NCBI GenBank assembly: GCA_000934665.2
Contig: JYFJ02000293.1
Span: 62,001-126,000, forward strand
Source of the DNA: Catajapyx aquilonaris
Lineage: Eukaryota
Length of the DNA stretch: 64,000 bases
Reading direction: 5' to 3'
Part shown: positions 1 to 37,500 of the stretch, in pieces
Position numbering within the stretch: position 1 is the first letter of the stretch
Layout of the letters: the number at the start of each line of letters is the position of its first letter
The notes under the pieces: model-generated
The model's database searches: none
Told to the model about the DNA's origin: nothing
Seen by the model: only the letters and a program-made list of their open reading frames with translations
Position numbers and translations under genes: made by a program

Positions 1-2013
1 GTGGAGCGGACGGCCTTGCGGCAGAACCTCAAGTTCGACTTCAGGTCGGCCTGTCGAGCGCTGGAGAACCAGCAGCGCGTTCACGAGCGGATGCAAGGCC
101 ACAAGAACACGGTGGACCTGAAGGTGTTCCAGGCCAGGAAGCGGGCCAAGAACGAGGACGACAAGGTCACCAAGATGTACGAGGAGTGGCTCCAGAAGCA
201 GCGGATCCTGGAGGAGGAAGAGCAGAAGCTCCAGACCGTCCTGCAGAAGCTCCGCGTCAAGGAGGCCCTCCGCGAGGAGTACCGCGAGCTCTTCAAGAAC
301 GCGTACCAGGAGCGGTACGAGCTGCGGATCCAGCTGATGCGCAACCTGGAGGACCACTCCTGCACCGGGAAGGGCACCACCAGCCTCCACCAGCGGCTGG
401 AGGCTCTCCAGAACCAGTCGGCCAACCTGAACCAGGAGCTGCATTTCGACAAGAACCGATTGGCAGGGCGGTACTTGGACCTGGAGGTTCAGGAGAACCG
501 GCTTGCGACCAAGCGGAAGGAGCTGCAGGTGCTGCATGACGGGTTCCAGCAGCAGTGCGGCACGCTGGATAAGGTCGAGGTGGAGCTGAGCAACGCGGTG
601 CTGGAGGAACGCCGCGGATTGGTGCAGCTGGACATTCTGACAGGTACGTACTGGCGGCCACTGTGGATTCCGCTCTAACGATGCGTCTCGTAGGCAAGCG
701 GCATGAAGCGGAGGCCTACTACAAATCGAAGCAGGCTCAAGCCGGCCCGTTGCAGCACAAGCTCCACCGTATGGAGGAAACGGCGTCCGTCCTGAAGCGA
801 TCCATTAAGGACATATTCGAGAGCTGGCGCGGAAAGCGGAATGGGCTTCTCCAGAAGACCCGGGCGCTTCACTCGCTGTCGACCACCCGGCACTACAGGC
901 TGCAGGAGTCGGCCGCGCTGAGGCGGTACGTCCAGAAGGAGGAGACGAGGATGGAGGACCTGGCGAAGGAGGTGAAGAAGGAGGAGGACATCATCATGCG
1001 GATGGGAGAGCAGGTGTCGAAGCTGCACAGCGAGAAGAAGCTGCAGGCTGGCGTTAAGGTGGCGGCGAAATGGGGGAACGTGATACTGCAGGACGAGCAG
1101 GCTCATAAGGTACGTCGTCGTCGCTTCATGTCACGCAGGTACTAATCGCGGTTGTTCAGATACGGGAGCTTGAGAGCGCGACGTTGCGACTGGCGAGCGA
1201 CATCGAGGGGAACAAGGCGGGGCAGCAGCGGTTGGCCCTAGCCCTTCTGGACCGCCGGGACGAGCGGCTTTTCTGGGAGAAGCGGCTCCAGACGGCGCAG
1301 GAGGCCCGAGAGACCATCAAGACGGCGGAGGAGCCGGAGATGCACCACATGAAGCAGCAGATCCACCACATGGAGGTGCGGCTGAGGGAGCTGCTGCGGG
1401 TGCAGGAGAAGGTGCTGCAGGACATGGAGAAGGGCGTGGGTCAAAGGGCGCACATGTACACGAAGGCCGAGTGCAGGCTGAGGCGGTCCGAGACGGTCGC
1501 CAAGAGCAAGGAGGCCAAGCAGGAGAGGGCCATCCAGCTGCTGCAGTTCAAAGTCGAGAAGGCCAAGAAGGTAAGGCTCGCTTAACGAGAAGCTGCGGCA
1601 ATGTGACTGAAAGCGCGACGTTGCAGGAGTCGGCGTATTGGGAGCAAGCCGTTGATTCGATGCGAGTCAAATCCGTTAACCTGAAGACCAAAGTGGAGCT
1701 GGAGCAAGAGGGCGCTTGTCGAATGCACCACAACTTGGAGCGCTTGAAGGCGGACGTGCAGCACGCTTGGGTGCAGAAGATGCGGGGAGTCGAATCCATC
1801 GTGGCCCAGCAGAACAGGGTGAAGACGTACGAGGACATCAAGAAGGGGAAGGTGAAGGTGCCGTTAAGCAGGGAGCCCCAGGAGCTGGAGGATCTGATCC
1901 AGGAGCAGATGCGGTGCAGGGAGGCCATCGTGGAGATGCTGGTGCAGTGCATGCAGGACTGCAGGCCGCAGGGGCTGCTGCTCAAGAAGGCGTTGCACAT
2001 TATCGAGAAGTAA
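1..2013 (+). CDS. CCDC40: Coiled-coil domain-containing protein 40 (axonemal ruler), 5'-partial; exons 1-643, 694-1109, 1160-1570, 1627-2013
   Basis: Three short GT-AG introns (50, 50, 56 nt) join the ORF-track fragments in frame. The product is coiled-coil throughout. The segment RLFWEKRLQTAQEARE...EMHHMKQQIHHMEVRLRELLRVQEKVLQDMEKGVGQR matches the CCDC40 C-terminal motif LWEKKIQLAKE...EIHRMKVRL.QLLKQQEKMIR.ME.AV.RR. Confidence 0.85.
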
Positions 2014-2080
2014 ACGGTTTTTGTACGAGCGACCCAGTTTTATTTCTGGGATGTAACAATGCTGTTGCCTGTAAGGAACA

Positions 2081-3471
2081 TTAGCAATAAACACGTTTGT
2101 CATAATACGGATAGGCTTTGAACTTTCCGACCTTCTTGTCATGCTTGTCGTAATTGAATTTAAAAAAGCACCACTCGCAATATAGGAACGGATCGCATGG
2201 GACTCGGTCATTTCCACGGGTGATCCACTTTGCGATGTACTTGCGGCAGAGCATGCATTTTTTGGCTCTTGCTCGTACGTTGCGGACAATCAGTGGGTAT
2301 GCTTCTTTAGGCGAAACGGGCCCGACGGTGGGGTTATGCAGCCAGGCGTCGGTGAATATCACTGCATGTTCGCAGGTCTTTTGATGTATGTACAAGTACG
2401 GTCGGCCCAGACGCAAGTTGAGGCTACGTAACGATGTGTCAACCATTGAAGATCGCTCGTATCGTTCTGAAGGATACGAAGTCCATTTGCTGTAACGAGC
2501 ACGTACATCCTGCAAGTCCATCTCTGCGCAACGGTCATCCATGTACAGCACATCCTCGATACATATGCATCCTGAGCTGTCCTTCTCCTTAGCCGTCTTT
2601 GGCTTCATGCCTTTTGGGTTTTCAGACACGTCGTCAGTCACACCTAGGTCAACCTGGCATTTAATCAAGTCTCGCACGGACCACAAGTTTTGGCTTCCTA
2701 GCACCTGCAGCTTCACGCTCAATTTCGGCTCGGTTTCATCCCGCTTCGGATGGTACACGCAGATGGCGAACACAACTTCGGAGGGATCCACCGCAGTCTG
2801 TTTGGTTCGTCCGGACGGCCAGGATTCCTCGCATCCGTCAGCAGTGTGCAGGTACAGGTGTCCGTAGTAACGCCGCAATGTGTCGTCTTCCTTCAAAAGG
2901 TCCGCTTTCCGCAGCTGCAACGTACGGAGGCCTATACCTTCCGGTATGGCCTGAATCCTTTCCAGAATATCAGGCAGCCGCTTAATCTCCTGTACGGTGT
3001 ATGACGCCACATGTTTTTCAGGATCCGGATTAAGTAAAGCCAGATCCATGGTGTCGACCAGCTCCTGCGTTCTTGCCGAAGTTAGTTCCAACGCCCGGCT
3101 CATCCACACGCTGAATCGCTGCCTCTTATGGTTTCCGGTCCCCTCCAGCCGTCCTCTAGCATTGTCGAATTCCTTGAAATATCTGTCGAATTCCAGCTTG
3201 GTTGACGACACAATTTCATTTGGATTCGACTGGTCTTCAGCCTAGAAAAAAAATTCAATAATAAATTAATTATTACAAAATTATGTCAGTGCGCAACATT
3301 CCGGGATATGTTTACCTTATGGATACCCGTCTCCTCCTGTTCAGTCCCTTGCATTGTTGCCTGTTGTGCATAGAACACTCCAGAAGGCTTTGTAGAACAC
3401 AATTGGAACAAGTTCCATACGTTCTCGATGGAAAAACCACAAAAACGTTTGATGTTCGAAACCGGGTGCAT
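2081..3471 (-). CDS. SNAPC3: snRNA-activating protein complex subunit 3 (SNAP50); exons 3471-3316 and 3241-2081, about 438 aa
   Basis: Contains VLGSQNLWSVRDLIKC, LNLRLGRPYLYIHQKTCEH and the C-terminal CMLC...CDPFLYCEWCFFKFNY zinc motifs typical of SNAP50. A phase-0 intron (AAG|gtaaac...ttctag|GCT) links the upstream ATG exon. Confidence 0.92.
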
Positions 3472-3745
3472 TGGGATGGCTGACCCTTAAAACGGCTGCT
3501 GTCAACTCATTTTTACTAACTAAATGTACCACTTAGCATAAATGAACAGATATATTTTTAAAATCTGTATGAAACTGATAAAAATTATAATAGAAGTACT
3601 TGTAATGTACATAAATTGCATGCGAAGTACAAGGGCGCATTCGTACTCCCGCTCTTCACTTTAAATTGTATGGCGGGAAATGTTTATGCTTAATGAGCTA
3701 ATTACAAACTGTACTGTATGTACCTACCAGTATTGGAGAGACAGG

Positions 3746-4082
3746 CAGGGAGCATATACTACATAAGAGGCGCAAACATTCGATTTTTGCGTCTTTCTGT
3801 TTGGGGCGTTTCCAAGGCTGGCGGCCATCTTGAAGTGTGGGGAACGCCAACGAGGTAATAGGGTACAGGCAAAAATAGGGTCCACCATCTTTGATGATTG
3901 TGGCGGCCATGGCAACTACATGGCAAGAAAGGCAAGATGGCAGACCCTATTTTTGCCTGTACCCTATTTATACCTCGTTGGCGTTCCCCACACTTCAAGA
4001 TGGCCGCCAGCCTTGGCAACGCCCCAAACAGAGAGACGCAAAAATCGAATGTTTGCGCCTCTTATGTGGTTTATGCTCCCTG
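3746..4082. mobile_element. Long inverted repeat (foldback/MITE-like, ~337 bp, arms ~145 bp)
   Basis: The left arm CAGGGAGCATA...CCATCTT is nearly the perfect reverse complement of the right arm AAGATGG...TATGCTCCCTG. No clean target-site duplication is seen. Confidence 0.75.
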
Positions 4083-4189: not shown

Positions 4190-6187
4190 TTACATGGTCC
4201 ATTTGACTAGGTAATAATTCTTCTTTCCGACCCTCAATAGGGAGAGTCTGTTTGGCAGGATGTGGATTCCGGGTACGATCACCTCCTCCGGGTTCGTCAC
4301 CTTGCTGTGGTTTATAGAGAAGCCGCCTCCAGATATTATGCGTACGGCATCATCTGTTCAGATGACAATAATGTAACTTGTAAAGAGCATCACAACTAAG
4401 TCGAGTGACATTAAGTTAATTGAATATTGTTATCTTTTACACTCACTATCGAATTTGAAGCAATTGGCCTTCATTGCAAGCTGCATTGCAGTAGTTCCGG
4501 GACTCAGCAGGACCTCGGATGTCTCGGCCGACTTGAAAATATGACCCATCTCGTCTCTGCTCAATGCTGCAAGACTCTCTAACGACGATTCGTAAAGGGC
4601 ACGGGTCGTCTTCACTGCTAGTTCGAGGCCGCGTTCTAGAAAATGGGATTGTAAAAGCTAATAATGTATTCTGGGTGTTTAATTACTTCAACTGCATGAT
4701 TATTAGGGTGAGTTAATTGAAATTGGTTACAAACAGCAGTGTAAAGAGCTTTGTTTGGAAATCAGATACAATACCTCCATGAATCAGGAGAGTCAATTTT
4801 TCAGCCAAATGTCGCTGGGCAAGCCGCTTTTCTGGTGCCGCCTGCCAAAAAAAATAGTTTTAGCATAATTACATCAACCAGCAGAAATAACCACCTTTTT
4901 TTTTTTTACAAAACAATTGTACCTTATGGGCATTCATGAGAGCTTCAATTTCCTTGAGCGGCGTAAAAGTGAAAAGCTTCAGAAGCATCTCGATTTTGTC
5001 GTCCTCGGTTCGGATGAAGAACTGGTACAAGTCGAACTCCGAGGTTTTCTCCGGGTCGAGCCACACTGCGTTGCCTGCAGTCTTTCCGTACTTGTCGCCA
5101 GTTTCCGATGCGATCAGCGGAAGTGTGATACCTAAGCAGAAAAAATACTGCATTTAATGTATTGGCAGCGTGACATCATGTACTTACCATAAACAGTTTC
5201 ATCGGTCAGTTTGCTGATGAGGTCACGACCAGACTGGATATTGCCCATTTGATCGCTTCCGCCGATCTGTAACAATTTATGAGTTAAACGTACGGATGAT
5301 AATAGCGCTTACAGTTCATTTACCTGGAACCTGCATCCATGTTTCTGGTACAAGTGCAGCCAATCATGCGACTGGAAAACCTGGTAGAGAAACTCATTCA
5401 GACTCATTCCAGCCGCGGTTGCTAATCTGTTCTCGACAATCTTTCGAGAGAGAAGCGGACCCAAACGAAATTGGCTGCCTGTTCCGGCAACAAAGTCGAC
5501 TGCGCTCAGCGTTGAAAACCAGCTAGCGTTGTTCAATATCCTGAAATTTATGGCGCATTCGTGAATTAATTTAAATGGAGCCAAACATTGCCATACTTGA
5601 CGGGAACGAGAGGCGAACTGTCGTCTTGTCCCCAGAAGCAATTTTGATGGTTTTGAAATATTCTACGTATTGTCTGCTCAATCCTCTTCGAATTCCGCTC
5701 GACGTCATCGGCCGATATGGACGACCTCTCTGAATTTTTCCCGCTTGGGTCTCCGATGCGGGCCGTAGCTCCACCTATCTAACAGCCATAATTTGATAAG
5801 TGGAAACAAATTAATCAATCTTTAATTTCCCTTACCAAAGCAATTGAATTGTGTCCAGCCCGTTGGCAGTGTATCAAAGCCACAAGCACCAGAAGATTTC
5901 CGACATGAAGACTCTCCGCAGTCGGATCAAACCCAGCGTAAAAGTGCTGCGCCTTCGAGTTCAAGACATCAAAAAAGTCAGGTCTGCGAATGTTTAAAAT
6001 ATTGCATTAAATGTCATTAAAAATTATTTTAATAAGCTTACGACATTCACCCCGGTTCTGGAAATATGTCGTTTATCAGCCCACGTTCGCTCAGCTTCAG
6101 TATGTTGCGATTCGTGTACCTCCGTACGCTCAGCGCTTGCTTTAAAAAATTCCTTTCAATTGCAATCAATCGCCTGCAGCAATACAT
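4190..6187 (-). CDS. YARS2: Tyrosine--tRNA ligase, mitochondrial; exons 6187-6051, 5983-5836, 5778-5597, 5540-5324, 5266-5188, 5131-4923, 4841-4775, 4635-4447, 4353-4190; about 463 aa
   Basis: The spliced product contains [15 protein letters not shown] (HIGH motif), [25 protein letters not shown] and [12 protein letters not shown] (KMSKS-equivalent), ending [14 protein letters not shown]. The N-terminus is a basic presequence. All introns are GT-AG and in phase. Confidence 0.95.
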
Positions 6188-6197
6188 CCTGCAATTA

Positions 6198-6200
<3 letters not shown>

Positions 6201-6262
<62 letters not shown>
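6201..6262. repeat. (AAT)n microsatellite, ~20 units, inside a probable 5'-UTR intron of YARS2
   Basis: Directly visible repeat. On the minus strand it is flanked by a gtaagc donor (~6273) and a ttgcag acceptor (~6189). Confidence 0.95.
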
Positions 6263-6263
<1 letters not shown>

Positions 6264-6646
6264 ACATGCTTACTCTGCAGCATTAGGCAGTAATTATTCT
6301 AAGGCTGTGAGTGCCACCTTCTCATTCGTACTGTACAAATTATAAATTTTAAACTAATTTTTTTAAGCAAAAATTCACACTGAGAAAAACCATGCCGACA
6401 TTTCCGGACCGATTGTAGCGTCGCGGCTGCTTTTGTCGGCTATCTCGAAAAATAACCATTTAAGTGATGTGAATAGCGGTTAATAATCGCTGCTTGCTAA
6501 CATCACCTGCTACTTTGACAGCTACTTGTATTCTTTTACACTCTGAAAATTTTAATGGGTTCAAATTTAATAAATATTACGGCATACATTTAGAGCTAAT
6601 TTTTTTTAAATATGTTTGTTGACATTTTACTTAAAAGCGGAACTGT

Positions 6647-7247: not shown

Positions 7248-7645
7248 CTAATCCTGTGCGGTCATCATGTGTTGAAGGAGCATCTGGCGCTTTGGAAAAT
7301 TCTGCCCGCACTTCGCACATAGCCAGATGTCATGGAATTTCATGAGGTGGAAGAGGTAAGCGTGGTTGGAGGAGAAGGTGTGGATGACGGTGCACAGCGG
7401 GCAAGTGTGGATGGGTACAGTCGGATGCATGATGCCCGAGTGGACCTTAAAGCCTTGCCTTGTCTCAGATTCCTCCATGCATTCCTGGCACTGGTATGTT
7501 CTCGGCTTGTTGACACGCCACAGCTGAAACATTACCCCAATAGGTTTAATGAACTTACATTATTTTAATGGGTGAAGCTTGAATTTGAGTGACACTTTGC
7601 TTTTGCCAGCTTGTTTACCTCAATTGGAGTTTTTCCAGCCATCAT
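7248..7645 (-). CDS. Small C2H2 zinc-finger protein (3 fingers); terminal exon 7523-7248, possible ATG exon 7645-7619; 5' end uncertain
   Basis: Fingers CQEC...HSGIMH, CPLC...HLMKFH and CAKCGQNF...LLQHMMT (last finger incomplete). A tttcag acceptor precedes LWRVNK. Confidence 0.55.
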
Positions 7646-9708: not shown

Positions 9709-12203
9709 ATGGAACAAGGAGGATGGAAAAAGTCATCGCTTCCTGTCACTTTACCTGTCCAGGATTCATCCGAAATGGATCCAAGTGTGCAGAGGTAACA
9801 CTGAGAAATTAGTACGAATTGTATTAAAATATTCATTAGTTGCTAAAAGCTCTCTATCACGCTGTTATGGTTAGACCTTAGAATTTGTTTCGGTGCTCAC
9901 CTCTGCGTAGAATGTATAATATGCTTATCTCGAAATAACATGGAAATGACTTGCAATTTCAGCACCAGGGAGGCCTTTTACGAATATTACCAACGTGACG
10001 TTCCTAGTCTGACAGTATCTGTGGATGGAAATGGCCATAAAACCAGGACAGTTGTCTTCAATGTGGTTGAAGCAGCTCAGGTGCTTGGGGTTCCACCCAC
10101 ATGTGAGTGATTCAGCGGAAACATCTAAGACACTTCACGTAATTTGCTGCCCCCTTTTTTTTTCACAGACTTGACTCAGTACATTGGAAGTGAGCTTGGA
10201 TGTCAGTCGCAGTTTGATTTTAAAAGCATGGAATTTGTATTGGGAGGGATCCATGATACGGGCCACTTGAATTATCTCCTTGATACATTCATCCGCAAGT
10301 TTGTGCTCTGTCCTGAGTGCAATAGACCTGAAACTGCGATTCAAGTGGTAGGTAGGAAGCATCGGGCAAAGGTTATTCTCATCTGCCGTCCATGTGGGAA
10401 GGAGCATCAGCTGCAGCACAACCACAAGTTCATCCAGTTTGTGGTTAGAAATCCGCCAGGTAAGCTAGCTCAATATTAATATCCGAAATATTTTGGGCTG
10501 GTATGGACGAATGAGCCGTACAATGTAGGATGAAGGAAAACTTTTATGACAATGCAGCTGTTTACTTTTTGCAGCAGCTCAGGATGGAGAACTGTCGGAT
10601 CAGGCTAGGAAGACGAGAAAATCAAGTAAAGGTAAAGAGTGTGCAATTGCATTTGGCTGCATGAGACACTTGGTGAAAAATATCAAGTGCTACTCAGAAA
10701 TGTCTGCTCTTTGTGTGCAGCTGGAGAGAAACCTCGGAGCACGGCAGGTTTCCATGAGGCAATCGTGAAAGGACTGAATGAAGTCGGAAGGGACCTGGAT
10801 TCATTGCAGACATTTCTGGTGTCAACCGAGTCTAAACTTAACTACCGGCACAATGGAGAGGTTCTTTTTGAAGTTCTGCTAACTGGAGGAGTACTATGTA
10901 TGTCTTTTTAATTTTTTAATTGTACAGTAATTCATTTCAATTTTATGATGGTAGCTTCTGGAGCCAAGATGGATGGTTACGTTGGCACAACTGATGTCTG
11001 TGCGACTTGTTTGCCCCTTGACGTTGGGATGCTGCATGCTTTTGCCGAGGCAAGGTTTCATTTATTAACAGGTGCTTACATATTAATAAGTTATTGTTCC
11101 TTAGGTGTTTGCAAGCCTCATTAGAAGTTACAGATATTTGAAAAAGTTTCTTGGACGAGCGTTGCAGAAGGTGTTTGGCTCCTTGACTCAGTTTGATAAG
11201 AATGAAAGGTCTAAGCTTGCCTACATAACAGGCTTCTGCTTTGCATATCGCCTGTGTAGACCGAATGTCCTGCGAACCCTAACAAATGTGAGTTGAAGCT
11301 TTCTTTCCGTTTGCGCTGTGGAGTACTGAAGTTGTGTTTTTCCTTAGGAAAAAATAGTCGAGGATAATGTGGCCATTTACTTCGTGATGGAGGCTCTGGG
11401 TGTCTGGAAGGAGGAAAGGGGAGTGACTGACGTTCTTCAATCACTTAGAAAAGCTGGGATAGCACCAAAGTAAGTTTTTTTTTTTTTAATCCAAGTACTT
11501 TTTCATGCTGCGTTAACTGGTTATGATGTCCAATCATTCCGTCGTAGCCTACTGGAATTTTTCCCACTGGATCAACGGTCTGATGATGTGACTTGTAAAG
11601 CAGTGCTTGAGGAGCATGGCCTCGGTGAAGTGGCCAACCATGTGAAGGAACAAGTTGATGTAGAGCAAAAGTTGGCGTCCCAGTTGAAAACTCAGATTCT
11701 GAGAGGACGACCTGTGAAAGACGCTGTGAAGGATGCCAAGAAGTCTGCATCAAGGAAACTTCCTGGCCATCAAGTTGACAATATAGTAAGTGCCATATTA
11801 ATCATTGAGACTGTTATTAATTATCTCCTGAATTTGAATTTACAATAATTAATATTAGATTGACTAGTAAATAACAGCAATCTGTAAGTCTGTTCTCAAT
11901 AACATTTCACAACAATGAAGTGGTATGCTGATGATAAATTACACGTTTCATTTAATCTTTTTATGACCATTTTAGATTTGGGACACGGTGACATCGTGCA
12001 TGGAACAGATTAGAAGTGACTCCCAGGGAAAATTCCCTGAGAGGTCAAGGTCGCAACAGGAGGAGCAATCGGGCCAAAGTCATGAACTAGTAACTGTGGA
12101 ACATTTTAATAAGAGCATGGCTGAGCTGAAGGAGCAAGTGTTTAGTCTGGTTGCTCCTCTTGGCAACAAGTTAGATGAGCTGCTGAATGTTAATCAAAAG
12201 TGA
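9709..12203 (+). CDS. Chimeric eIF5-NTD / 5MP(BZW)-like protein, copy A; exons 9709-9794, 9963-10102, 10169-10459, 10575-10631, 10721-10897, 10955-11049, 11105-11287, 11348-11469, 11548-11785, 11976-12203; about 538 aa
   Basis: The spliced frame is open. The N-part matches eIF5 (PPTYLTQYIGSELGCQSQFD...FIRKFVLCPECNRPET...CRPCG...HKFIQFVVRNPP). The remainder matches BZW/5MP (RKTRK, IVKGLNEVGRDL, KLNYRHNGEVLFEVLLTGGVL, VFASLIRSYRYLKK, SLRKAGI, LLEFFP, IWDTVTSCME). Confidence 0.88.
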
Positions 12204-13206
12204 AGTAAAGGCTGAATCAGAATAGAGCTTGAATTCCTAAGGTGGCAGTTTCGTAGTTTCCTTTTAAATTTACCTTGAAGTTTGGCATGGAACTATAGGC
12301 ATGCTATTGTAAAATCAATTTAATGAACTTTAAATGTTTCATGCAATTTACTGACACACTTTAATATGAGATTACAGAAGCATCTGCTAGGTTTTTAATG
12401 ATATGGATTAAAGCTCTCTTCTGTTACACACAATTTGACAACACTGTGCATATGGAGAATAAGATTGAAACTACAGCTACTTTTGGGGGCAAATTATAAG
12501 GTTAAAGTAAGAAATTGGCTGCGGTTGGTTGGTTGTCCAACAATTCGGTTTGAATTATTTGACCGGCAGTAATCATTACAATAAAATAGATGAGAAGGGT
12601 TACTAGTCCATTACTTTTTGTCTGGTTTATTACCGTTATTTTACTCGTTATATACACTTGCCTTAAAACTGACATTGCCTGTACCATGGAAATATTTGAA
12701 ATATATGCCTACTGTAGTATCTCATTAATATTTTTTTAAAATAAAATTATTTTTATCCCATTTGCAGCTTATAAATAATAAAAATCATTCACTGCCCATT
12801 TTGTAAACTGAGGCTCTGAAATGTACAGGCATGTTCTCAACTTTGGTCCCATTATTATGGTTAGCCTTGGTAAGCAAAATTCTTATCAGTGTTTGTCTCA
12901 TACTTGAGGCAAGCTGGACTGGGGAATTTCCCCCCTCACAAGCTTGCCCTCACGCCATTGGGTGAGTGGCCATTAGGATCATGTGTGTCCCAGCCAGGAA
13001 GTGTCTGCATCTCTTTTTCCCCCAAGCTCCAGTATTGTCTAGACTATAGTACCCCAGTTCATACCATTATCAAAATCCAAGAAGCCTGCTGCTTGGAGAG
13101 TACTAGTTAACCGTAGCTGCAAGTAAGTGTGTTATCCAATAAGTTGCTCATTATTTTGTTAACATTTTAGTGTTTGACGGTAATTGCTTTTTGTGTTTTT
13201 TTAAGA

Positions 13207-15499
13207 ATGAAAGTGCTTACCACTGATGTTAGGGATGCCTACTTCCAATATTCCAAGCGTGAAGTGCCCAACTTGAGGGCAAAGGTAGAAAAAAAGGGAA
13301 AGGAAACCCTTACGATCATTATCAACATGACTGAAGTAGCAGAGGTGCTTGGGATTTCACCGACACGTGAGATACTCAGACCGAAAGCTGTCAAATGTTG
13401 CAAACTGATCCGCCTTTTTTTTTCCGCAGATGTGACCAAGTACTTTGCAAGTGAACTTAAAACTAAGACTCGTAATGACTTCAAGAAGGATCACTTCGCA
13501 GTGACGTGTAGCTGCGATGAAGACTACCTGAACTACCTCCTGGACCATTTCATCTGGAATTATATGCTTTGCGCTCATTGTTACAAGTTTGATACTGAGC
13601 TTCAGGTGCTTTCGGATCAAAAGGTCACGCAGTTCTGCAAGCCTTGCGAGAAGCACTTTCTGCTGCGATTGCCCCGGGCATTCATCCGATATGTCGGCAA
13701 AAAGCCAGGTTAGTCATATTTTTCACTGTAGTAATTTTGTAATTAAAAAATTAGTTTCTTGGCTTCTAAAAGTGAGCGTTCCAGATGAATTCCTGTGGCC
13801 GTTACCGCATGAAACTAATACTAATCCATATTGCAGGTAAACTGATGCAGGAGCCTATGAAGATTGTAGTAATGCAGAAAGCGTCACCTGGTAAGGTACT
13901 TTTTAAATAATAGCAACTGCAACTGCGGCTGCTAACCAGCACATTGGTATTTGAAGTTTTACTTAAATTATACCATTATTTTCAGAAGTTCGTGCCACTA
14001 TGGAACGTGTGGACTACTGCGGACACATGTTGAAAGGACTTGGTCAGATCGGTACCACTGGGAATAAAGTGATTGCTATTCTCAAGTATATCGAGTCTTC
14101 CGGATCAGAAAATGATCATGGGCGTCACGGACGCCTGCTCTGGGACATTCTTCTGACTGGTTCTGTCCAAGGTTTGTGACAATGCACTTGGAATACTAAA
14201 TTAATGTTTTAAAATGCATAACTTGATGAAAGAATATTTTTAAAATCACTGAATTTGTCCAGTTTTATTGCATCACCTGGTCATTGTAAGTGACACTCAT
14301 TTCGCCTAAAACAGCAAATTTGATTACTGGCTCAGTAATTATTAGTGACGCAGCAGCATGATGAAAACAAGTGATTAACTTTTTTTTTTTAAATTATATT
14401 TTCCAGATGATGAGATAAAAGCAGAGTGTGGAGGAAGCACCGACTCGTGCCTTCTCCGTCTTCCGTATGACATGGCAAACATGACGGACTTTGTCGAGGT
14501 AAGATTGAATCTAGGGTTCTATTTGTTGGAGTCTGGCAAAAAGTCTGTTTGACGACAATCGATTTTTGATTGTCGTTGTTTTATTACGACTTTGTCCTGA
14601 GCATGACATCACACTGATTCTACATGTTATTTGCAGATGATTGGCACACTGACTGATCTGTACAAGATCCCAAAATGCTTGCTTGCCCTGAGTTTTGAGA
14701 AGATCTTGGGCAATCTGAAGGCATGCAATAAAGCTGATTGGCTGAAGCTGGCATGTGTACTTGCCCTTTTACTTGCATACGGCTACTGGGTACCATCTGA
14801 CGTGCAGGTAAGTGCGACATAACTTGTGACATTCACGTTTGAAAAGTGTGTTTAACACTCGATACCTTTTTCCGCAGAATTGGATTGCAGTAATTACATG
14901 GTGTACCCCGTTTGTCGTGCAAGTTTATCAAGTGCTGCGAAAAAAGGGTGGTATTACATCCATTTGGAGAACTATTTCACAGTAAGTTTCCGAGTTTGAT
15001 TCTTGGATTGCACCGAGAACTTTTTCGTGTGCCAAGTGACTATGTGAATGGCTGCTTAGCTTATTCGAGTTTTTCCCAACTTTAAGGCCAATGGGTCCAG
15101 TCTCAGAGGGATGCGGCTTGAAATCCAGTGGTGCTCTTTACAGTTCCAAGCAAGCTGCGTTTGGACAGAAGGCAAATGGTGATGGCAAAAACTTGCAGAG
15201 TGCAGCAGATAAGGCCAAGCAAGATTTACTGTTGCGACTGGATGATCAGATGACAAGGGATCGTCCTGTGGAAGATATTGTGACTGATGTGAAGCAATAT
15301 GCATCCCAAAACAACATGCATGATGAGGAAGTTACTGTCTTGGTGAGTGATAAATAAAGGGTGGCAGATTTTGTTCACGATGTCGTTTCTAACACTTGCT
15401 GTTTAAATTTAGATTTGGGAGACTATGATGAGTTGCATGGATAGCGTCAGGAAGAAGGGACCAAAGCGTATAACCAAATGGCACAAGGTTACTGTGTAA
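13207..15499 (+). CDS. Chimeric eIF5-NTD / 5MP(BZW)-like protein, copy B; exons 13207-13366, 13430-13708, 13837-13890, 13986-14171, 14407-14498, 14637-14807, 14878-14981, 15060-15342, 15413-15499; about 471 aa
   Basis: Open spliced frame with the same intron positions and phases as copy A. eIF5-like segments: VPNLRAKVEKKG...INMTEVAEVLGISPTHVTKYFASEL...LCAHC...CKPC. BZW-like segments: LLWDILLTGS, LKLACVLALLL, LFEFFP, RPVEDIVTDVKQY, IWETMMSCMD. Confidence 0.85.
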
Positions 15500-15603
15500 T
15501 CAAAAGTAAGTCATTGATCACTGCTTTACATGCTGTGTATGCTTGATGCATCACTCGCTGAGTGCAATCAGAGTAACAATTTGAATGGGTAAATACTCTA
15601 ATA

Positions 15604-15744
15604 CGGTAAAACCTCGATATATTGCTCTTCAAGGGGGCGCCAAAAAGTAGCGTTATATGCGGGGGAAATTTACCATATGGAAGTGATCACGGGACCGGGA
15701 ACTTAAAAGCGGGAAAGCGTTATATGCATATCGAGGTTTTACTG
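15604..15744. mobile_element. Tc1/mariner-superfamily (pogo/Tigger-like) MITE, 141 bp
   Basis: TIRs CGGTAAAACCTCGATAT / ATATCGAGGTTTTACTG flanked by TA on both sides. Confidence 0.85.
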
Positions 15745-16746
15745 TACTTCCTCTTTTTTTCTCCTGCAGAAAAGGTCAAGCCGACTGGCGACTCAGCGGC
15801 TGATATATTCAGAATGGAAACATGTCATTTGAGCTTTAGCCCTGTTGAGCACTGAGTTATGTTTTTTTTATTTTCAAAATTGAAGATTTCCTGTCGGTGT
15901 GATATTAGTGAATAATAATAAGCCCCAGAATTGATCGTTTTTAATATTTTAATATCCATGGTGGTCCTTTTAAATGTTAAATGCCACATGTAGGGAAAAT
16001 CCAATAAATCCATCTACAGGGTGTGCTGTAATTAGTGTGAATCCACTGAATCGTCTGATTTGCAAATTGTATGTATATTCAGCCACCTGTTGAATAAAAA
16101 GGTTGAAAAATTATTAAGGGTGGAAATTTCTTATTATTATTTTTTCGTAAGCAACGACTATTAGCAGTACTGATAATTAGCAGCTGCTAAAGCTTACTGC
16201 TAACATGGGATTTTAGTCGTACTGCTATTAACTTTTTTAATAAGAGCTGCTAAAGGTTGGACTGGAGGCGTGTCGGCGTCTGTGCATGTGTTCGGAAGAG
16301 ATTTGACAACCTCAGGATGTGTGAGGAACCAGGAAGATTTCATAGATTGTGAGTACGAATGGCATGCAAAATAATCTGCACCAGGATGATTATATGTATG
16401 GTGGTTTAGTACGTATGGTGTACCCGGAAGTGTGTACAAGTACCTTGGATGGAGCGCCAGGAGATGTACCCGGCATACTGTACATGGAATACATGACATG
16501 ATCGAAGCCCTCAACAGGTTAATAAAGCTAATAAGTAAATTAATTAAAATTGAGCACGCATTACCTCTTGCCATTATTTGTACGTTAATTATTTTCAAAT
16601 ATCGCGGTAAACTGACCCATGTGATTTAACAGTATATGGTACGAAGGTACTTAATAATAATTATGCTGCAATGTACATAAATGTAACTCTTCAAATTAAT
16701 TATAAAAATATGTTACCCTGGTTGGTAATTATTATTTTTGTGTGTC

Positions 16747-16773
16747 TGGCAACCCTGAACCAAGATGGCCGCC
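16747..16773 (+). promoter_or_regulatory. Putative promoter/TSS of the SLC45 gene (TGGCAACCCTGAACCAAGATGGCCGCC)
   Basis: YY1-type CAAGATGGC motif followed by a candidate splice donor (cag|gtgata, ~16784). Same composite as 6647-6669. Confidence 0.45.
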
Positions 16774-19700
16774 TCCAGTACAGGTGATAATATATTTTTT
16801 GATGAAAGAAAAACATCTTATTGATGTGCTTATAATAATTATACAAACTGCAGAGTGTCCATATCACATGCGAATGCGTTGATCTAGGTGCGTGTGTTGC
16901 TGTATGTCATGTCCATGTAGTACCCTTGGAAGATGATCAACAATGCTACAAGTCAAGACAAAAAAAGTTTTGCTTGGAAATGTCACATGGTAATTATTTT
17001 TTTTAAACAATAGGACTATGAAGTTATTAAATCAAGTGCATTACTTTTTTTTAAATGTATTTCTTCATTACATTTGCCTTTTTTTAAAAAAATGAACAAA
17101 GGACTTGTGGCTCTCTGTATTACCTTGTATGTAGTTTTTACGTACAGCTGCGGTTTTGCCAACAAGTGTCATGCGAAGCTGAGATTAATGTGACTGAAAG
17201 ACATGGAGCACTTGCCATATGTGATTGACGAACAAGTGCGCCGTCACCTTTACATTATTGCCCGTACATATTTTTCAAGCTGTCGTAATAAAATCTGGCT
17301 AGATGTCAAACAGATAGAACCTGCCATAAATTACATTTTTAAAAAATGTAAGCCGAGTCAATTTGTTAATTATTGTTTTTAACGGCGGTGCGGTTCATTC
17401 ATTTTTTCCCCTGACCTTGTGCAATGTCACTTGCATTGAGAGTGGGAAATTCTAATTGCTGGTTCGCATGGACGTAAACATGTCACAACAACTGCGTGTG
17501 AAGCAGTGAGTGTTGAGATATTTAAAAAAAGATCTTTTTATAATCTCATTAACTTGGAGGATCAAACAATGTTGGTCAGAATTGTACGCACAAGTTGCGT
17601 AGTAAAATGATTTGCTCATTAAGGCGCAGTAAGCACCACGGGCTTAATAATGACGCTGAAGTCAATCTCGGCATGCAAATGAATGGCTCAGGTTTTCTGC
17701 CCTTGGTGACATAAATATATGTTGACCCTTCTAATCACAGGCCATATGTTAATTACATGCTGAGTACTGGCATCCGACATGTGTAAGAACACTTGTTTTT
17801 TTTTTTTTTTCAGAGCGGTAACATCGTGTGAAGAGCTGCCATGAGCCAGTCGTCGGGAAGAGTCAATCCTGTGTTTTCCAATGGGTGAGATGGCTTTATA
17901 GATCTTTCAGTCAAGAAGTTTTTTATTGTGGCCGGGGTGTCCGTCACTGATGAGGATAAGATTTTTGCGGACAGCTGAAAGGTGGAGTTTCAAGTAGTGA
18001 AAACGACATTAATGTGCGATTTTTCAATGAAAATTCTGCTCTGAATGACTGGCATCTGCTCTTTTTATGCAAGAACAACGGATTTCACTTACGTCCGACA
18101 TGTGCAATTTTTCTATGAATGACTGACATCTGCTGTAATTGCATAAGGTGCATTTGTGCTACTTTTTTTTTCTCCCGTACTCATTCTCCTTTTTTCGCAT
18201 TAGGATTTGTGAATTAAGAGCACATGGCTTGGGCCTATGAAGTGGTGGTCATAACTCATATTGGACCATTTTTGACAGTATGTTGTTTAATTTTTTTTTT
18301 GTAAGCTGCATATTTCATGCACCAGACTGCCGCATCTATATTTAGACAAAAGTGTATTATTAGCCTTTGTTTCTGCCTGTTGTTGCTGTCGATAGTGGTA
18401 AGGATGTGTATATTTTTATATCATCGTAATTTTACTTGCTGGATTAATTTCTTATTTTTAAATCTCAGATGCTTAATTTTAATTGCTGGGTAGCAGCAAG
18501 AGTCTTCTTCCTTCTTTCTCCATGCTTGCTTCTAAAATGGTCCGAAATATGTGTATCAAGTCGTTACAAACATTTTTTGTCGACCTTGAAGTCATGCAAA
18601 ATATTTAATTATGAGGAAAACGGTCCAATTTTTTTTTTTTACAATGGGTTATGCATCGAAAGGAATTTTCTCACTGTGTGTGGTACATACACCAGCTGTT
18701 CAAAAAAATTGACAGTAATACAATTGTAGTAGTCGAACAAAGTGTTGCGATTGTCAATTGCTCAGTTATGATAAAGATTCATGTGGCATGTGCATCTTTT
18801 CAGATGTGCATGAAAGCATAATTGTCCTGTATTTTTTAATTTTTTTTTCTATATCATGACCACTACGAGGAATGATGTCCTTGAAACAATTATAGTGATA
18901 ACTCAGGTATACATATGTGGAGAAGAAGAAGAAAAAAAAATGCGACTGTATTTTGCATGTGTATTACAAACAAAAAAAAGTAATTAATATGGCAGGGATT
19001 TTAATTCCATATTTAATGAGATGTTTATGCTTGGGAACCAAATGGGAGGGAAGCACGCCATCAAAATAATATGTGTGTGAGAAACATTTCTGGGTAGAAA
19101 GATAAGGTACACAAAGGGAGAGGTTTTTTTTTTGTATGGCCAAGCAATCTTTTTTCGCTGAGGATGCTGATCTCGGATGTCCAGTGTTGGATGGTGTCGG
19201 GTTGAGTCCAAAGGGGTGACATCATTGTCTGTTTTTTTTTCCCCCATTGGTGTGTTGGCCTGTGCCGGCCCTGCCATTCTGTTATGGTGATAGCTAAGAG
19301 GAAGTGTGATTGGAGTTGTATCTGGAAAAGGTTGGAGCACTCTGTATTATAACTGAACTGCCAGGCTTTGGATCACGACAAAAGGTATTTTTTGGTGCAA
19401 CAGTGTGTTTTTGTAATACATTTTTTGAAATGCCGTTGTCATCTCAGATTTCGCTGTCTTGTATTGTACGACACGTTGAACGAAGCAAATACACTTGCCG
19501 ATAATAACTGGAATTATCCAAGAAACGGAAAAAGTAGTTCCTGTGCTACTTGTTAGTTGAAAAAATGCAATATCTGATCTTGTTGGATCAATTATTCTTA
19601 TGCCATACATTTAGCGGAAAGGACCATGTCGCTATTTCACTAAAATAGCCGGTTTCCAGTTAATAGTTTAAAAAATGAGAAGAGCTCCACACTTACTGTT

Positions 19701-20359
19701 GCGTCTCATTACAATTTCGGCATGTTTCAAACCCTGCGAGAGAATCGGAGATGCTGCGCATACCAACATTTTGCCCTGAATACCTAAGTCATTGTTGACT
19801 ATAGAAAAAGTCACTTTTTGTCATTGTGACGTGCAGATTTGTTGTTTACTATGTGTGTGAATTCTCACTCTCCGCCCCGTAGGATGCCATTAGCCTGATT
19901 TACATGAAGGTCATGCACTCTACATGTGTAAGACCGGCAACTAAACAAAGGTGTTTACAAACTAAAAGAAGAGAATTAACACATTGACCTTGATTAATCA
20001 CCGGCTGATGTTGTGTACTTACCCAGGGAAGGGGAATTTTAAAATTCTCCGCTACTGTATGTACCGTACATGTCTGGTCACCAGACATACAGTGTTTTTT
20101 ATTAGCTTGTTACATCACTGTAATTGGAGTAATTTATGGGCAAAGGTGAAGGCTGTCCAAGTACTGAGCATTTGCGGATGTTTCAGTCCTGCTTTGCGAT
20201 TCTTGATGGTGAGTGTTGCCAGTTTTTCTCGTAGTGACATTTCACGATGTTGCTCCGATTGTTCATAGTTCGACTATTCGGGGTACGTTGTGCTGCTATT
20301 GTTTGACTTTTACGTGTCGTTCCTTCCAGTGAGTTGGAACGTGGTGTCTGGGAGCCACA

Positions 20360-33989: not shown

Positions 33990-34195
33990 CGGGGTGGTCC
34001 AAGTTCAAGTGTCGTTTTATAACGGCGATTAATAGCAGTGATTTTGCGATGACGTAGCAGCGACGCGTAAATGTCCCACTTCGGCGCATCTTCGGCGCAA
34101 TCGAAGTGGGCAATTTTACACGTCGCTGCTACGTCATCGTTAAGCGCTTCTATTAATCGCCGTTATAAAACGACACTTGAACTTGGACCACCCTG
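33990..34195. mobile_element. Mariner-type foldback MITE (206 bp, almost fully palindromic)
   Basis: TA|CGGGGTGGTCCAAGTTCAAGTGTCG...CGACACTTGAACTTGGACCACCCTG|TA. Confidence 0.9.
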
Positions 34196-34235
34196 TATAA
34201 CAGTTGGAGCAAAACTGATAAGAAAATATTCGTCG

Positions 34236-34309
<74 letters not shown>

Positions 34310-34510
34310 GGATCCTCTTGTAACTGGCAGACTTCATTCAACTGTTGCGCTGTTGGTAATTTTTTATTATGGGGAGAAACAGGAACCCCCCGAGAAAACC
34401 CTCGCAGACACGGAGAGAACTCGCCGAGACTCTTCCCAGTTGAGAAAATTCTCTGGCCAATGCAGCTGGGATCGAAATCGGGACTTCAAGGGCGCCCTCA
34501 ATCACCACTG
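34236..34510 (-). mobile_element. tRNA-derived SINE with V-domain-like core and (ATC)n tail
   Basis: On the minus strand: CAGTGG (A-box end), TTCGATCCC (B box), the core GTTCTCTCCGTGTCTGCGAGGGTTTTCTCGGGGGTTCCTGTTTCTCCCCA, then a long (ATC)n tail at 34236-34308. Confidence 0.7.
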
Positions 34511-37500
34511 TATGTTTGCTGTCAGCACATTAGGAACACCCTGTACAACATACTATAAGCTTATATATTTTTTAAAAAAATCACAAACTGGAAAATCACC
34601 GCAATTAATTATACCCAGCAGCACCAAGCATTGTCCGTGTCAGAGGCGCAAGGAAGTCAATTAAAATAAAAACCCCTTCCTTTTCACGAAAACCTCGATA
34701 GCAATCATGACTTGCGCCTCCGTTTGCGGCTTTACAACCCAGTTTTATGGTACCCTCGGTCAGGACCTTTTGGACATGCACAAAAAGATCAGAGTTAAAT
34801 TTCAGGTGTGGTTGAGTCATCCTCCTTGTTTCCATCATGGAGGATGGACTCTTGAGGTGCATTTGAGCGGAAGAGGTGTTCGTTGGGGGAATGGTAAAAG
34901 AAGGGGGTTGGATTTAGAGGAATGAAAAAAAAGAGAGGGGGGTTGGTGGTAAAAAGGGGGGTGGGTGGGTGAGGTGGAAAAGAGCAGGTTGCGAAGGAAA
35001 GGAAAAGCCTTCCTCAGACGGCTGCTGGCAGGGCCGGTCCCAACTTCGCTCACGGCTACACTCTTCCTTCATCAGAAAAATATAATCGTTTTAAAAAAAA
35101 CCAGCCGGATAATCAGTGCAAAATTTTTTGGATTTATTTAATATCCCGGACATAATAATTTGGATGAATTTTCGTGTGTGTGCCAGCATTTTTGCACGTT
35201 TGTTTGTTGGACAGCTCTGAATACAAGGGCAGCGGAACGGATTTTCCTATTAGGGGGTGAGTTCATTTACCGTATTTATTTTAATTATTATTATTTCTTT
35301 TTAATATTAATTTTTAATTTTTAAGCAAGTTGAAAGGTGCGTTTTTTTGTGAGGTGGGATGATGACCTGAGGTCATTCTGCTCTGATTAGGTGCTAATAT
35401 TGAACCATTGTTTGTGTAATAAGCAGTGGAATTATTGTAATCATGAGGCCAATTAATATGGCAGGAAATATTACCATTTGCCCAAGGAGGCAGGCGTATT
35501 ATCGATTTTTTAATTATTATTAATATGGGTTCATATAATTATTTGCAAAGTGCAATAGTGGAGTGGCATAATATCTGCTGTAACTGACCTAATGTAATTT
35601 TATTAGTGATTTACTGCCATTTATTACTTCCTGCTCTGCACAATGTCACTTGCTTGCAATGTTTATGCTTTTCTTTTGCGTAATGTTTGTTTGGAATTTG
35701 GGTCCTGATCGCAAAGTTTTGTTTTCGATCAAATTATTTTTTCCACCCTCCAACTTGGCATTCAGATGTCGAGCTTTCTCGATTGACAATCGTGACGTCA
35801 CAAAATGGTCCGTTGGGTTAGATCCTGCTCAACTATAGAGATAGACTGACTGCCATCCAAGGTCTTTTGGCAGCCAGGGAAAGGAAAACTGGTGATGGTG
35901 TGTGGCAAAGTGTATTGTGTACGTATGTGTGTATTGGAAGGTATTCGAGGGGGGGGGAGGGGGAGGTGATTGGAAGAAGGGGGGGGGAGGGGGGAAGTGG
36001 GGGAATAAAATTTATGCGATAAAGACACGCCCTTATCTCAACCCATATAGGAAGCGGCTCTGAACACAGAATTGCATAACATTTGTACACTAAAAATATA
36101 ACAATACATTTTATTTATATTATATTATAATATCGGGAGAGGTTGTTTTAATAAATTGTGAATAATTAACTCATTATAAATGTCAATCAGGAATTTTGAA
36201 ATTAAGCAATTTCTCAGCCGTGCGACATAAATATACGAGATTTAATTAAATTTTCTTATTTAATATGAGTGCATTTTCTTACAATGATAATTAAATAAAA
36301 TGCCAGCAGTGCTTTTTATTTATTAATATTTTGACACTATTTTTATTAATATTTGTTGAAACTATTTTGTACATAGTATTTTTTTTAGCATTCAAGGTAC
36401 CGGAAGCTATAATGTAGCTCATAAATATTATTGATGTCACGCTTTCTTACAAATGAGAGTCACGAATCACCAAAATGCGTGGGGGATGTTTATCGGTAAA
36501 TAGGAATAATCATCGGTCCCCCCCGAACAATGGTAACCGTGCAATCATCCTGCAAGGTCAACGCCAGCAATTTGCTTCTGGATATAAATAAATAGCAGCT
36601 GACGTCATTAGTAATAGTGTAGGAAGGGCAATTGACTCGTGCTATAAAAATATATGGCGATCGCTTTTTTTATTTTTTTAAAAAATAATTGGGAAACGCT
36701 TCCTGCGCAATTATACAGTGCTTCTGTGACTGTTACCATTTGTGTGACATATGCGTGTCCTACATGCTTACATCAGAGTCTGTCGACACACACATTGCAA
36801 ACTGCACACTGGAATTAACCTTTTATGATGATATCATACGGCAGCCCCCCATTCATATTTTGTAACTGTTTATTTACATAGTTGTGTGAGCTTTTTTTTT
36901 TTGCAATACTCTGCATTCTTTTATAATAACTGGGTCAAAGCTACCCGTTGCCATACTGCAATTAACTACTTAACCTCACGGTGTAATCTTTTCAATCGGT
37001 GCTTTATTATTCCCTAGAGAAAACTAGGGCCCTGCTGCGATGATTTACTAACAAGTAAGTCTCTCGGGAAGAAAAATCTTGATAAAAATGGCCGAATAAG
37101 AATGACCCACGTGAGTAGTCTAGTAGGTCAGTTACAATGTTCGAGATTCATTCCAACATGACCTATTGTAAACCAAGGGACACGATTTGGTAACGGTATA
37201 ACTGCGAGATGTATATCAGGATGAAACTCACTGATTAGTCTCGTTACCGTAACATTGTTTCTTTGAGATAGGTCCTGGTTTTTTTTTTCGGAAATAAGTG
37301 AGCACCCTTTCTTCCCCCCAAAAAACTGGTTCCTTGACCTTTTGCACCCGTTCCACTTTGGGCACAACTTACACTTCTATGGCTCCACCCAAAAAGACTG
37401 GCCTTGAGATCCGCAACCTATCATTAACCCCTTTTATCTATCAATCGTGTTCGAGGGGGGGTTCCGCAAAAAAAAAAAAGTGACAGACAGTTCCTCTTGG

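Follow-up and report, generated by a model that had tools for sequence, protein, structure and literature searches.

We analysed a 64,000-nucleotide stretch of DNA (the window) from Catajapyx aquilonaris, contig JYFJ02000293.1 of assembly GCA_000934665.2, positions 62,001 to 126,000 of the forward strand; coordinates below are those of the window. On its + strand lie two related genes in tandem, copy A (9940..12203) and copy B (13207..15499), whose predicted proteins join an N-terminal domain (NTD) of the type found in translation initiation factor eIF5 to a part that resembles the HEAT domain of the 5MP/BZW proteins. The window has an overall G+C content of 41.6% and is eukaryotic DNA carrying short GT-AG introns. 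A first-pass annotation had described copy A as a copy of eIF5 in which catalytic and codon-sensing residues are altered.

In the preferred model copy A has nine coding exons (9940-10102, 10169-10459, 10575-10631, 10721-10897, 10955-11049, 11105-11287, 11348-11469, 11548-11785 and 11976-12203) and encodes 517 amino acids, with the stop codon TGA at 12201-12203. The frame is open over every junction, and the eight introns measure 55-190 nt, seven of them GT-AG and one GC-AG. From the ATG at 9940 the frame reads MEMTCNFSTREAFYEYYQRDVPSLTVSVDGNGHKTRTVVFNVVEAAQVLGVPPT and ends at a GTGAGT donor at 10103 on the + strand. After an intron of 66 nt, exon 10169-10459 completes a Tyr codon and continues with LTQYIGSELG, a zinc ribbon and, at its end, VVRNPP. 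The GC-AG intron (11050-11104, 55 nt, GCAAGG ... CCTTAG) has the sole non-GT donor in both genes; its counterpart in copy B is GT-AG. Signals of the form AATAAA or ATTAAA occur 3' of copy A at 12407, 12580, 12740 and 12777.

The ATG at 9940 was preferred as the start because it is the first ATG past an in-frame stop (at 9844, with no ATG between), has a good context (A at -3, G at +4) and lies 24 nt 5' of the T/R codon, the same distance as the ATG at 13207 of copy B. A start at this position also yields the canonical numbering F13-Y14. An alternative upstream coding exon at 9709..9794 (+ strand), spliced from 9794 to 9963 with a GTAACA donor and a TTTCAG acceptor, gives an open model of 538 amino acids. 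We did not prefer it, since in both copy B and canonical eIF5 the FY motif comes about 12 residues after the start. Left unspliced, 9709-9798 is a short upstream open reading frame (ORF) with its own ATG and a stop at 9796-9798, about 140 nt before the start of copy A. Autoregulation through start-site stringency is known for eIF5 and BZW mRNAs.

Copy B lies 1 kb 3' of copy A and has the same architecture: nine exons (13207-13366, 13430-13708, 13837-13890, 13986-14171, 14407-14498, 14637-14807, 14878-14981, 15060-15342 and 15413-15499) encoding 471 amino acids. All eight of its introns are GT-AG, and their phases are identical to those of copy A in 8/8 cases. The two proteins are 32% identical (145 of 450 aligned residues). 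The first intron of copy B (13367-13429, 63 nt) is free of in-frame stops, and 13171-13710 forms a single ORF of 180 amino acids. Retention of this intron would add 21 residues between a helix that ends in SPT and the motif TKYF; the 66-nt counterpart in copy A has two in-frame stops.

The eIF5-type N-terminal domain

The second exon of copy A matched the Pfam eIF5/eIF2-beta domain PF01873 with an E value of 9.6e-17, and copy B matched it with 2.1e-11. Against structures in the PDB, copy A exon 2 matched human eIF5 NTD chains (E 1.6e-22), and exon 1 alone matched the same chains (E 7.7e-5). eIF2-beta and archaeal IF2-beta belong to the same Pfam zinc-ribbon family. An eIF2-beta origin of this domain was considered and rejected on the far weaker matches of archaeal IF2-beta chains in the PDB search (E 1.2e-5 and 3.7e-4); no eukaryotic eIF2-beta chain appeared in this search at E <= 0.001.

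When 1.84 billion representative proteins were searched with HMMER, all against all, 1368 matches were obtained at E <= 0.001, the best of them 53% identical. The 11 relatives that we inspected, one of them a moth protein, are ordinary eIF5 or fragments of it, and where the N-terminus is present it has FYRYKMP, EGKGNGIKT and PTKYFG. To describe conservation we used 75 of the best 150 relatives, all with a complete N-terminus; the other 75 were fragments or N-terminally extended and were excluded.

Copy A differs from these proteins as follows. In the N-terminal tail (9976..10005) it reads FYEYYQRDVP where the canonical sequence is FYRYKMP, a change that includes a three-residue insertion and places Glu15 at 9982-9984 and a displaced Arg19 at 9994-9996. 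In the codon-facing loop (10021..10050) it reads VDGNGHKTRT instead of VEGKGNGIKT, with His30 at 10036-10038, Lys31 at 10039-10041 and Arg33 at 10045-10047 in canonical numbering. In exon 2 it has Gln (10177..10179) at the position of Lys55, within the string LTQYI at 10171-10185, where canonical eIF5 has PTKYF. The sequence strings that the first-pass annotation had quoted for copy A are all present, in the frame from ATG 9940 and in exon 10169-10459, and the changes that it had listed, N30H, G31K, K33R and K55Q, all hold in the alignment to the 75 canonical eIF5 proteins. Its location of these changes at 9970..10125 is correct for the tail and the loop. It is not correct for K55Q, which lies 52 nt past the end of that interval in the next exon, and positions 10103-10125 belong to the intron.

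The residue opposite Arg15, the arginine finger of the eIF5 GTPase-activating protein (GAP) function, depends on where the gap is placed. HMMER alignments to the human eIF5 NTD chains 2e9h, 2g2k, 9h6y and 8pj2 gave two placements, one with Glu opposite Arg15 and the other with Gln opposite Arg15 and Arg opposite Tyr16. These are the gapped and ungapped alternatives that had been proposed from the letters alone. With the 75 canonical proteins MAFFT gave the ungapped Gln/Arg placement in one alignment and the gapped Glu placement in another.

The canonical residues at these sites are strongly conserved, each to at least 95%: Arg15 in 70/73 canonical proteins, Asn30 in 73/74, Gly31 in 72/74, Lys33 in 71/74 and Lys55 in 72/75. 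The changes at Arg15, N30H, G31K and K55Q are therefore beyond ordinary variation. K33R is within natural variation, since Arg occupies position 33 in the remaining 3 of the 74 proteins. Further changes in copy A are K17D, M18V, E26D, K28N, I32T and R73E.

Canonical eIF5 has 45 columns with a conservation of 90% or more, and copy A keeps 31 of them. The losses are uneven, with 7 of 17 such residues kept in positions 1-34 and 24 of 28 kept beyond (Fisher p 0.003). The core motifs GxH, FI..FVLC..C..PET and C..C are retained. So is the four-cysteine (C4) zinc ribbon of copy A (10309..10395, CPEC ... CRPC), in which all four Cys are kept; the conservation of these columns in canonical eIF5 is 97-100%, and copy B retains them too. 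Judged from the alignment, the tail and the codon-facing loop of copy A have been rewritten and the predicted fold-defining core and zinc ligands are intact.

Copy B has been altered differently. Its loop reads KKGKETLT (G27K, N30K, G31E, K33L), unlike both copy A and the canonical sequence, and it keeps Lys55. It retains 21 of the 45 conserved columns without regional bias. In both copies inserted residues separate the FY motif from the Pro, and an Arg stands at the third position ahead of that Pro (QRDVP in copy A, KREVP in copy B).

The 5MP-type HEAT domain and the C-terminus

Downstream of the NTD, the copy A exons at 10721..11785 encode a HEAT domain of the 5MP1/2 type, covering positions 13-238 of the 241 in the PF25504 profile. 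Pieces translated from stop to stop matched profile positions 13-65 (E 1e-12), 99-159 (E 1.2e-12), 160-198 (E 5.6e-5) and 198-238 (E 0.0079); the piece at 10912-11121, expected at positions 66-98, had no match. The linker exon encodes a basic stretch, RKTRK (10607..10621), only a few amino acids ahead of the HEAT domain. Its position is consistent with the conserved Arg-Lys-Arg motif in the tail of 5MP, an equivalence suggested by spacing and not by alignment, and it is internal, being preceded by a domain of about 150 amino acids. The homologous linker exon of copy B has no basic motif. For the four exons of the HEAT part and the C-terminus a PDB search returned nothing meaningful, so that the 5MP residues Arg120/121, KKEE 309-312 and Tyr351/Ile354 could not be placed by alignment.

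Both eIF5 and 5MP end in a W2 domain, and we looked for one here. The last two exons of copy A had no match to the W2 profile PF02020 at E <= 1, and the last exon (11976..12203, 75 amino acids) has no W2 match. PF02020 was also found in none of 84 ORF pieces of the + strand at 12150-13200 and 15330-20300. When the 150 eIF5 relatives were compared with the whole window by tblastn, no match to the eIF5 C-terminal domain (CTD) was obtained; essentially all matches fell on the NTD exons of the two copies, with four isolated ones elsewhere. The sole match that involved a query beyond residue 180 came from the second NTD repeat of a library protein, P0097, on the NTD exons of copy A. W2 is thus undetectable in both genes, and a very divergent or unassembled W2 may exist. 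The idea that the two copies are alternative 5' cassettes spliced onto shared W2 exons was rejected, as no W2 was found up to the next gene at 20333.

The donor that follows the NTD exon fits the consensus and is in phase 1 in each copy, and the acceptor of the following exon is likewise a consensus one, of matching phase. An in-frame ATG is missing from the first two coding exons of the 5MP-like part of copy A and from the open stretch immediately upstream of them; the earliest in-frame Met of this part is encoded in exon 10955-11049. From these features we infer a fused transcript of NTD and HEAT part in both genes. By its predicted domains, then, copy A is a hybrid rather than the eIF5 paralogue that had first been supposed, and on their sequences neither copy is the organism's canonical eIF5.

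We then compared this architecture with that of the relatives. A domain scan at E <= 0.001 of the best 150 of the 1368 matches found W2 in 70 and PF25504 in none, so that an eIF5 NTD joined to a 5MP HEAT domain without W2 is absent among the best 150. Three eIF5-like library proteins show related alterations of the NTD, all of them without PF25504. P0032 has R15C and K55S and a weak W2 match. P0079 (225 amino acids) has an enlarged basic loop, K55E and no further Pfam domain. P0097 (612 amino acids), whose source organism seems to be AT-rich, carries a tandem of two divergent eIF5 NTDs, with no Arg15, no W2 and no further Pfam domain. By their sequences, natural proteins with altered GAP residues in an eIF5 NTD exist beyond this pair.

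Searches for orthologues found none. A homologous-protein search with exon 2 returned none, and this blank is uninformative since a control with the SNAPC3 ORF from the same window (Pfam E 2.5e-48) was equally blank. Of 301 pattern matches from a protein-guided scan of metagenome contigs not one was confirmed, and a degenerate DNA pattern for LNYLLD.FI...LC, which is common to both copies, had no matches. The ESM Atlas held clusters with PF01873 alone and nothing further. A full-text literature search found no description of a hybrid of eIF5 NTD and 5MP; its scope did not include the supplementary homologue list of Hiraishi 2014, which could bear on the question.

Several observations bear on whether the two genes have been maintained. 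They differ at 49% of nucleotides on average, and their frames are open over about 1.4-1.6 kb with intact splice sites. The length differences between homologous internal exons are multiples of three in 7/7 cases, which would occur by chance about 1 time in 2000. In neutral simulations none of 5000 runs remained without stops at either divergence level. The proportion of nonsynonymous differences (pN, 0.435) is lower than that of synonymous ones (pS, 0.694), and the ratio of about 0.33 is rough as the synonymous divergence (dS) is saturated. The open frames, shared phases, length multiples and simulations argue that both copies were selectively maintained. Together, these data indicate that purifying selection acted on both predicted genes over the greater part of the period since the duplication.

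Other genes lie nearby. On the - strand 5' of copy A are a SNAPC3 gene (2084-3241, a single ORF of 386 amino acids, PF12251 E 2.5e-48), exons of a class I Tyr/Trp-tRNA synthetase (4872-5662) and a C2H2 zinc-finger exon (7251-7559). The next gene after copy B is an MFS transporter (20333-22206, + strand), and further on is an exon for a DUF4758 'putative sperm flagellar membrane protein' (58065-58760, + strand). The first 4 kb of the window (1-4000) have a G+C content of 0.54 compared with about 0.37-0.47 in the remainder, and contain long ORFs in multiple frames on both strands, one of them reading coiled-coil-like. A run of 7 N at 24178-24184 marks an assembly gap. Long trinucleotide microsatellites occur at 6050-6298 and 34156-34555, where ORF translations read poly-Tyr, poly-Ile or poly-Met.

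Interpretation and comparison with known systems

We give about even odds to the reading that copies A and B encode hybrid, GAP-inactive, initiation-factor-like proteins that bind the decoding centre, in a pair of long-maintained tandem genes. Such a protein would consist of an eIF5-type NTD with its zinc ribbon, a basic tail and HEAT domain of 5MP/BZW type, and a short C-terminus without W2. In both copies the arginine finger is lost or displaced and the codon-facing loop has been rewritten, differently in each. Of the two helper residues, Lys33 and Lys55, which reportedly assist GAP activity, Lys55 is lost in copy A and Lys33 in copy B. The hybrid is most likely not an activator of the eIF2 GTPase. 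The W2 domain of eIF5 binds eIF2-beta, eIF3c and eIF1; because it is the tether to eIF2-beta, its apparent loss speaks against GAP function independently of the residue changes. The first-pass annotation had offered two readings of copy A, a GAP-dead decoy or a variant with a SUI5-like basic residue at position 31. Taken as a whole this interpretation is partly supported. The former is the better half, which the clustering of the losses fits and the missing W2 strengthens; the latter lacks support in the form given.

Where the two modules would bind is suggested by their parents. The 5MP proteins, 5MP1 and 5MP2, are also known as BZW2 and BZW1 and in Drosophila as Kra, and the name eIF1S has been proposed. 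According to Zottig et al. (bioRxiv 10.64898/2025.12.28.696766, with a version in Sci Adv), the HEAT domain of 5MP1 is in the A site next to eIF1A, the mRNA channel holds its N-terminal tail, in which an Arg-Lys-Arg motif is essential, and its W2 domain is on eIF2-beta and the initiator tRNA, holding eIF2-beta by Tyr351 and Ile354. In Llacer 2018 (PMC6298780), the eIF5 NTD occupies the eIF1 pocket by the P site in a closed 48S complex, with its loop facing the codon-anticodon helix. By analogy, the HEAT domain of the hybrid would be at the A site by eIF1A, and its eIF5-type domain at or near the pocket of eIF1 and the eIF5 NTD. There it could compete with or modulate eIF1, eIF5 or 5MP in start-site selection, retaining the two ribosome-facing modules and dropping the one that faces eIF2-beta.

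Some observations weigh against this interpretation. Copy B alone matches PF25504 only weakly (E 0.071), and it is tied to the HEAT family through copy A, by the identity of the two proteins and their common intron phases. The evidence for conservation comes from one pair of paralogues with saturated dS, with no orthologue found. The Arg in QRDVP and KREVP, present in both copies on a tail of the flexible type, could be a displaced arginine finger. The basic tail motif is absent in copy B. In addition, binding of 5MP is limited to the open, scanning complex in which eIF1 is in place, and the eIF5 NTD binds the closed complex after eIF1 has left; given these opposite conformational preferences, simultaneous binding by both modules is not obviously possible. 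Lastly, the tail of 5MP1 enters the mRNA channel from a free N-terminus (Zottig et al.) and the corresponding stretch of copy A is internal.

The same Arg is the basis for supposing that copy A is still a GTPase activator, an alternative eIF5 whose arginine finger is the Arg of QRDVP (KREVP in copy B) on a tail longer by three residues. We regard this as unlikely. Conservation of Arg followed by Asp or Glu, Val and Pro in two proteins that are only 32% identical is in its favour, as are the occurrence of Arg33 in 3/74 canonical proteins and the description, in Llacer 2018 (PMC6298780), of Arg15 on an extended unstructured tail whose flexibility is considered sufficient for it to get to the eIF2-gamma pocket. 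However, Lys55 is replaced by Gln in copy A and Lys33 by Leu in copy B, which leaves no common set of helper residues, no W2 was found that could serve as the tether to eIF2-beta, and the FY-R-Y-KM context around the finger has been rewritten. The SUI5-like alternative, in which G31K stabilises near-cognate pairing and relaxes fidelity, seems quite unlikely to us. Copy A does have Lys at 31, positions 27 and 30 are Lys in copy B, and in yeast, according to Llacer 2018 (PMC6298780), basic substitutions at E26, G29, N30 and G31 raise initiation at UUG and acidic ones tighten fidelity. But positive charge is lost elsewhere on this surface, through K28N, R73E and K55Q in copy A and G31E in copy B, and the yeast changes R28E/A, R73A and K55E act the other way and make initiation hyperaccurate (Llacer 2018, PMC6298780). 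Since G31K is accompanied by K28N, N30H, I32T and loss of both R73 and K55, a simple SUI5 phenotype is not inferable, and the difference between the loops of the two copies argues against one conserved role in codon reading.

Two further alternatives concern the genes themselves. The gene model could be wrong, with the NTD forming a stand-alone protein or the NTD and 5MP-like part being separate products. Retention of the intron after the NTD would bring a stop after six codons in copy A and one codon in copy B and yield NTD-only proteins of about 150 amino acids, and the first exon after the NTD in copy B has in-frame Met codons. Against this, the junction has a consensus donor and acceptor in matching phase in both copies, and in copy A the exons for the first third of the HEAT profile lack a start codon, the first Met being in 10955-11049; we consider an error of this kind improbable. 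That the two genes have no function at present, being duplicates that are silent or in decay, might be suggested by the missing W2, the great divergence of the sequences, the lack of orthologues found and the one GC-AG intron in copy A. It is very improbable given that at 32% identity the frames of both copies are open, their splice sites are intact and their lengths differ by multiples of three, that no neutral simulation in 5000 stayed open, that pN is below pS and that the residues of the structural core and the four zinc ligands are retained.

Returning to the hybrid, decoding-centre-binding reading, we can take it one step further, though only tentatively, as the following is doubtful: a lineage-specific fusion of eIF5 and 5MP, probably of an arthropod and with neither GAP residues nor a W2 hub, might link the module of the P-site-side pocket to that of the A site and so clamp the decoding centre, with the two paralogues tuned differently through the unlike charges of their codon-facing loops. 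If true, a clamped state of the decoding centre would arise that neither parent produces, and start-codon stringency could be set per tissue or stage. eIF5 and 5MP are seen as competitors that have only W2 in common, with the GAP and codon-sensing NTD belonging to eIF5 and the HEAT domain, which is thought to keep the scanning complex open, to 5MP. The hybrids appear to unite precisely the parts that are not common to the two and to discard the common one. If expressed, they would be a natural experiment on an eIF5 NTD and a 5MP HEAT domain without the eIF2-beta tether, would show how much change selection tolerates in the arginine finger and the loop facing the codon, and would offer a new handle on how start-codon stringency is controlled. 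Should the fusion be untranscribed, this is an ordinary divergent duplicate pair.

Compared with the 5MP/BZW proteins, copy A is alike in carrying a PF25504 HEAT domain; by its position, the short basic stretch before this domain may correspond to the Arg-Lys-Arg of the 5MP tail. The two copies are unlike them in having an eIF5-type NTD at the front and no detectable W2; the putative tail is internal in copy A and copy B has no basic motif. As a comparison, Hiraishi 2014 (PMC4176352) describes a survey of 97 5MP homologues and an NTD of 5MP that is unrelated to the eIF5 NTD. Compared with a SUI5-type eIF5, which has a basic residue at 31 in an otherwise canonical protein, copy A has its Lys31 amid a non-canonical loop and with changes at R73, K55 and in the C-terminal half, and copy B has Glu at 31. 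Like eIF5 (TIF5 in yeast), both copies start with a PF01873 domain and its C4 zinc ribbon. Unlike eIF5, copy A lacks Arg15 in the FYRYKMP context, with Glu or Gln there and the Arg displaced, by one residue in the ungapped alignment or into the three-residue insertion in the gapped one. The Lys33/Lys55 pair is incomplete in both, copy A having K33R with K55Q and copy B having K33L with Lys55 kept, and the loop GKGNGIKT reads GNGHKTRT in copy A and KKGKETLT in copy B. A W2 C-terminal domain is undetectable in either copy, and a 5MP-type HEAT domain occupies the place that the linker and CTD have in canonical eIF5.

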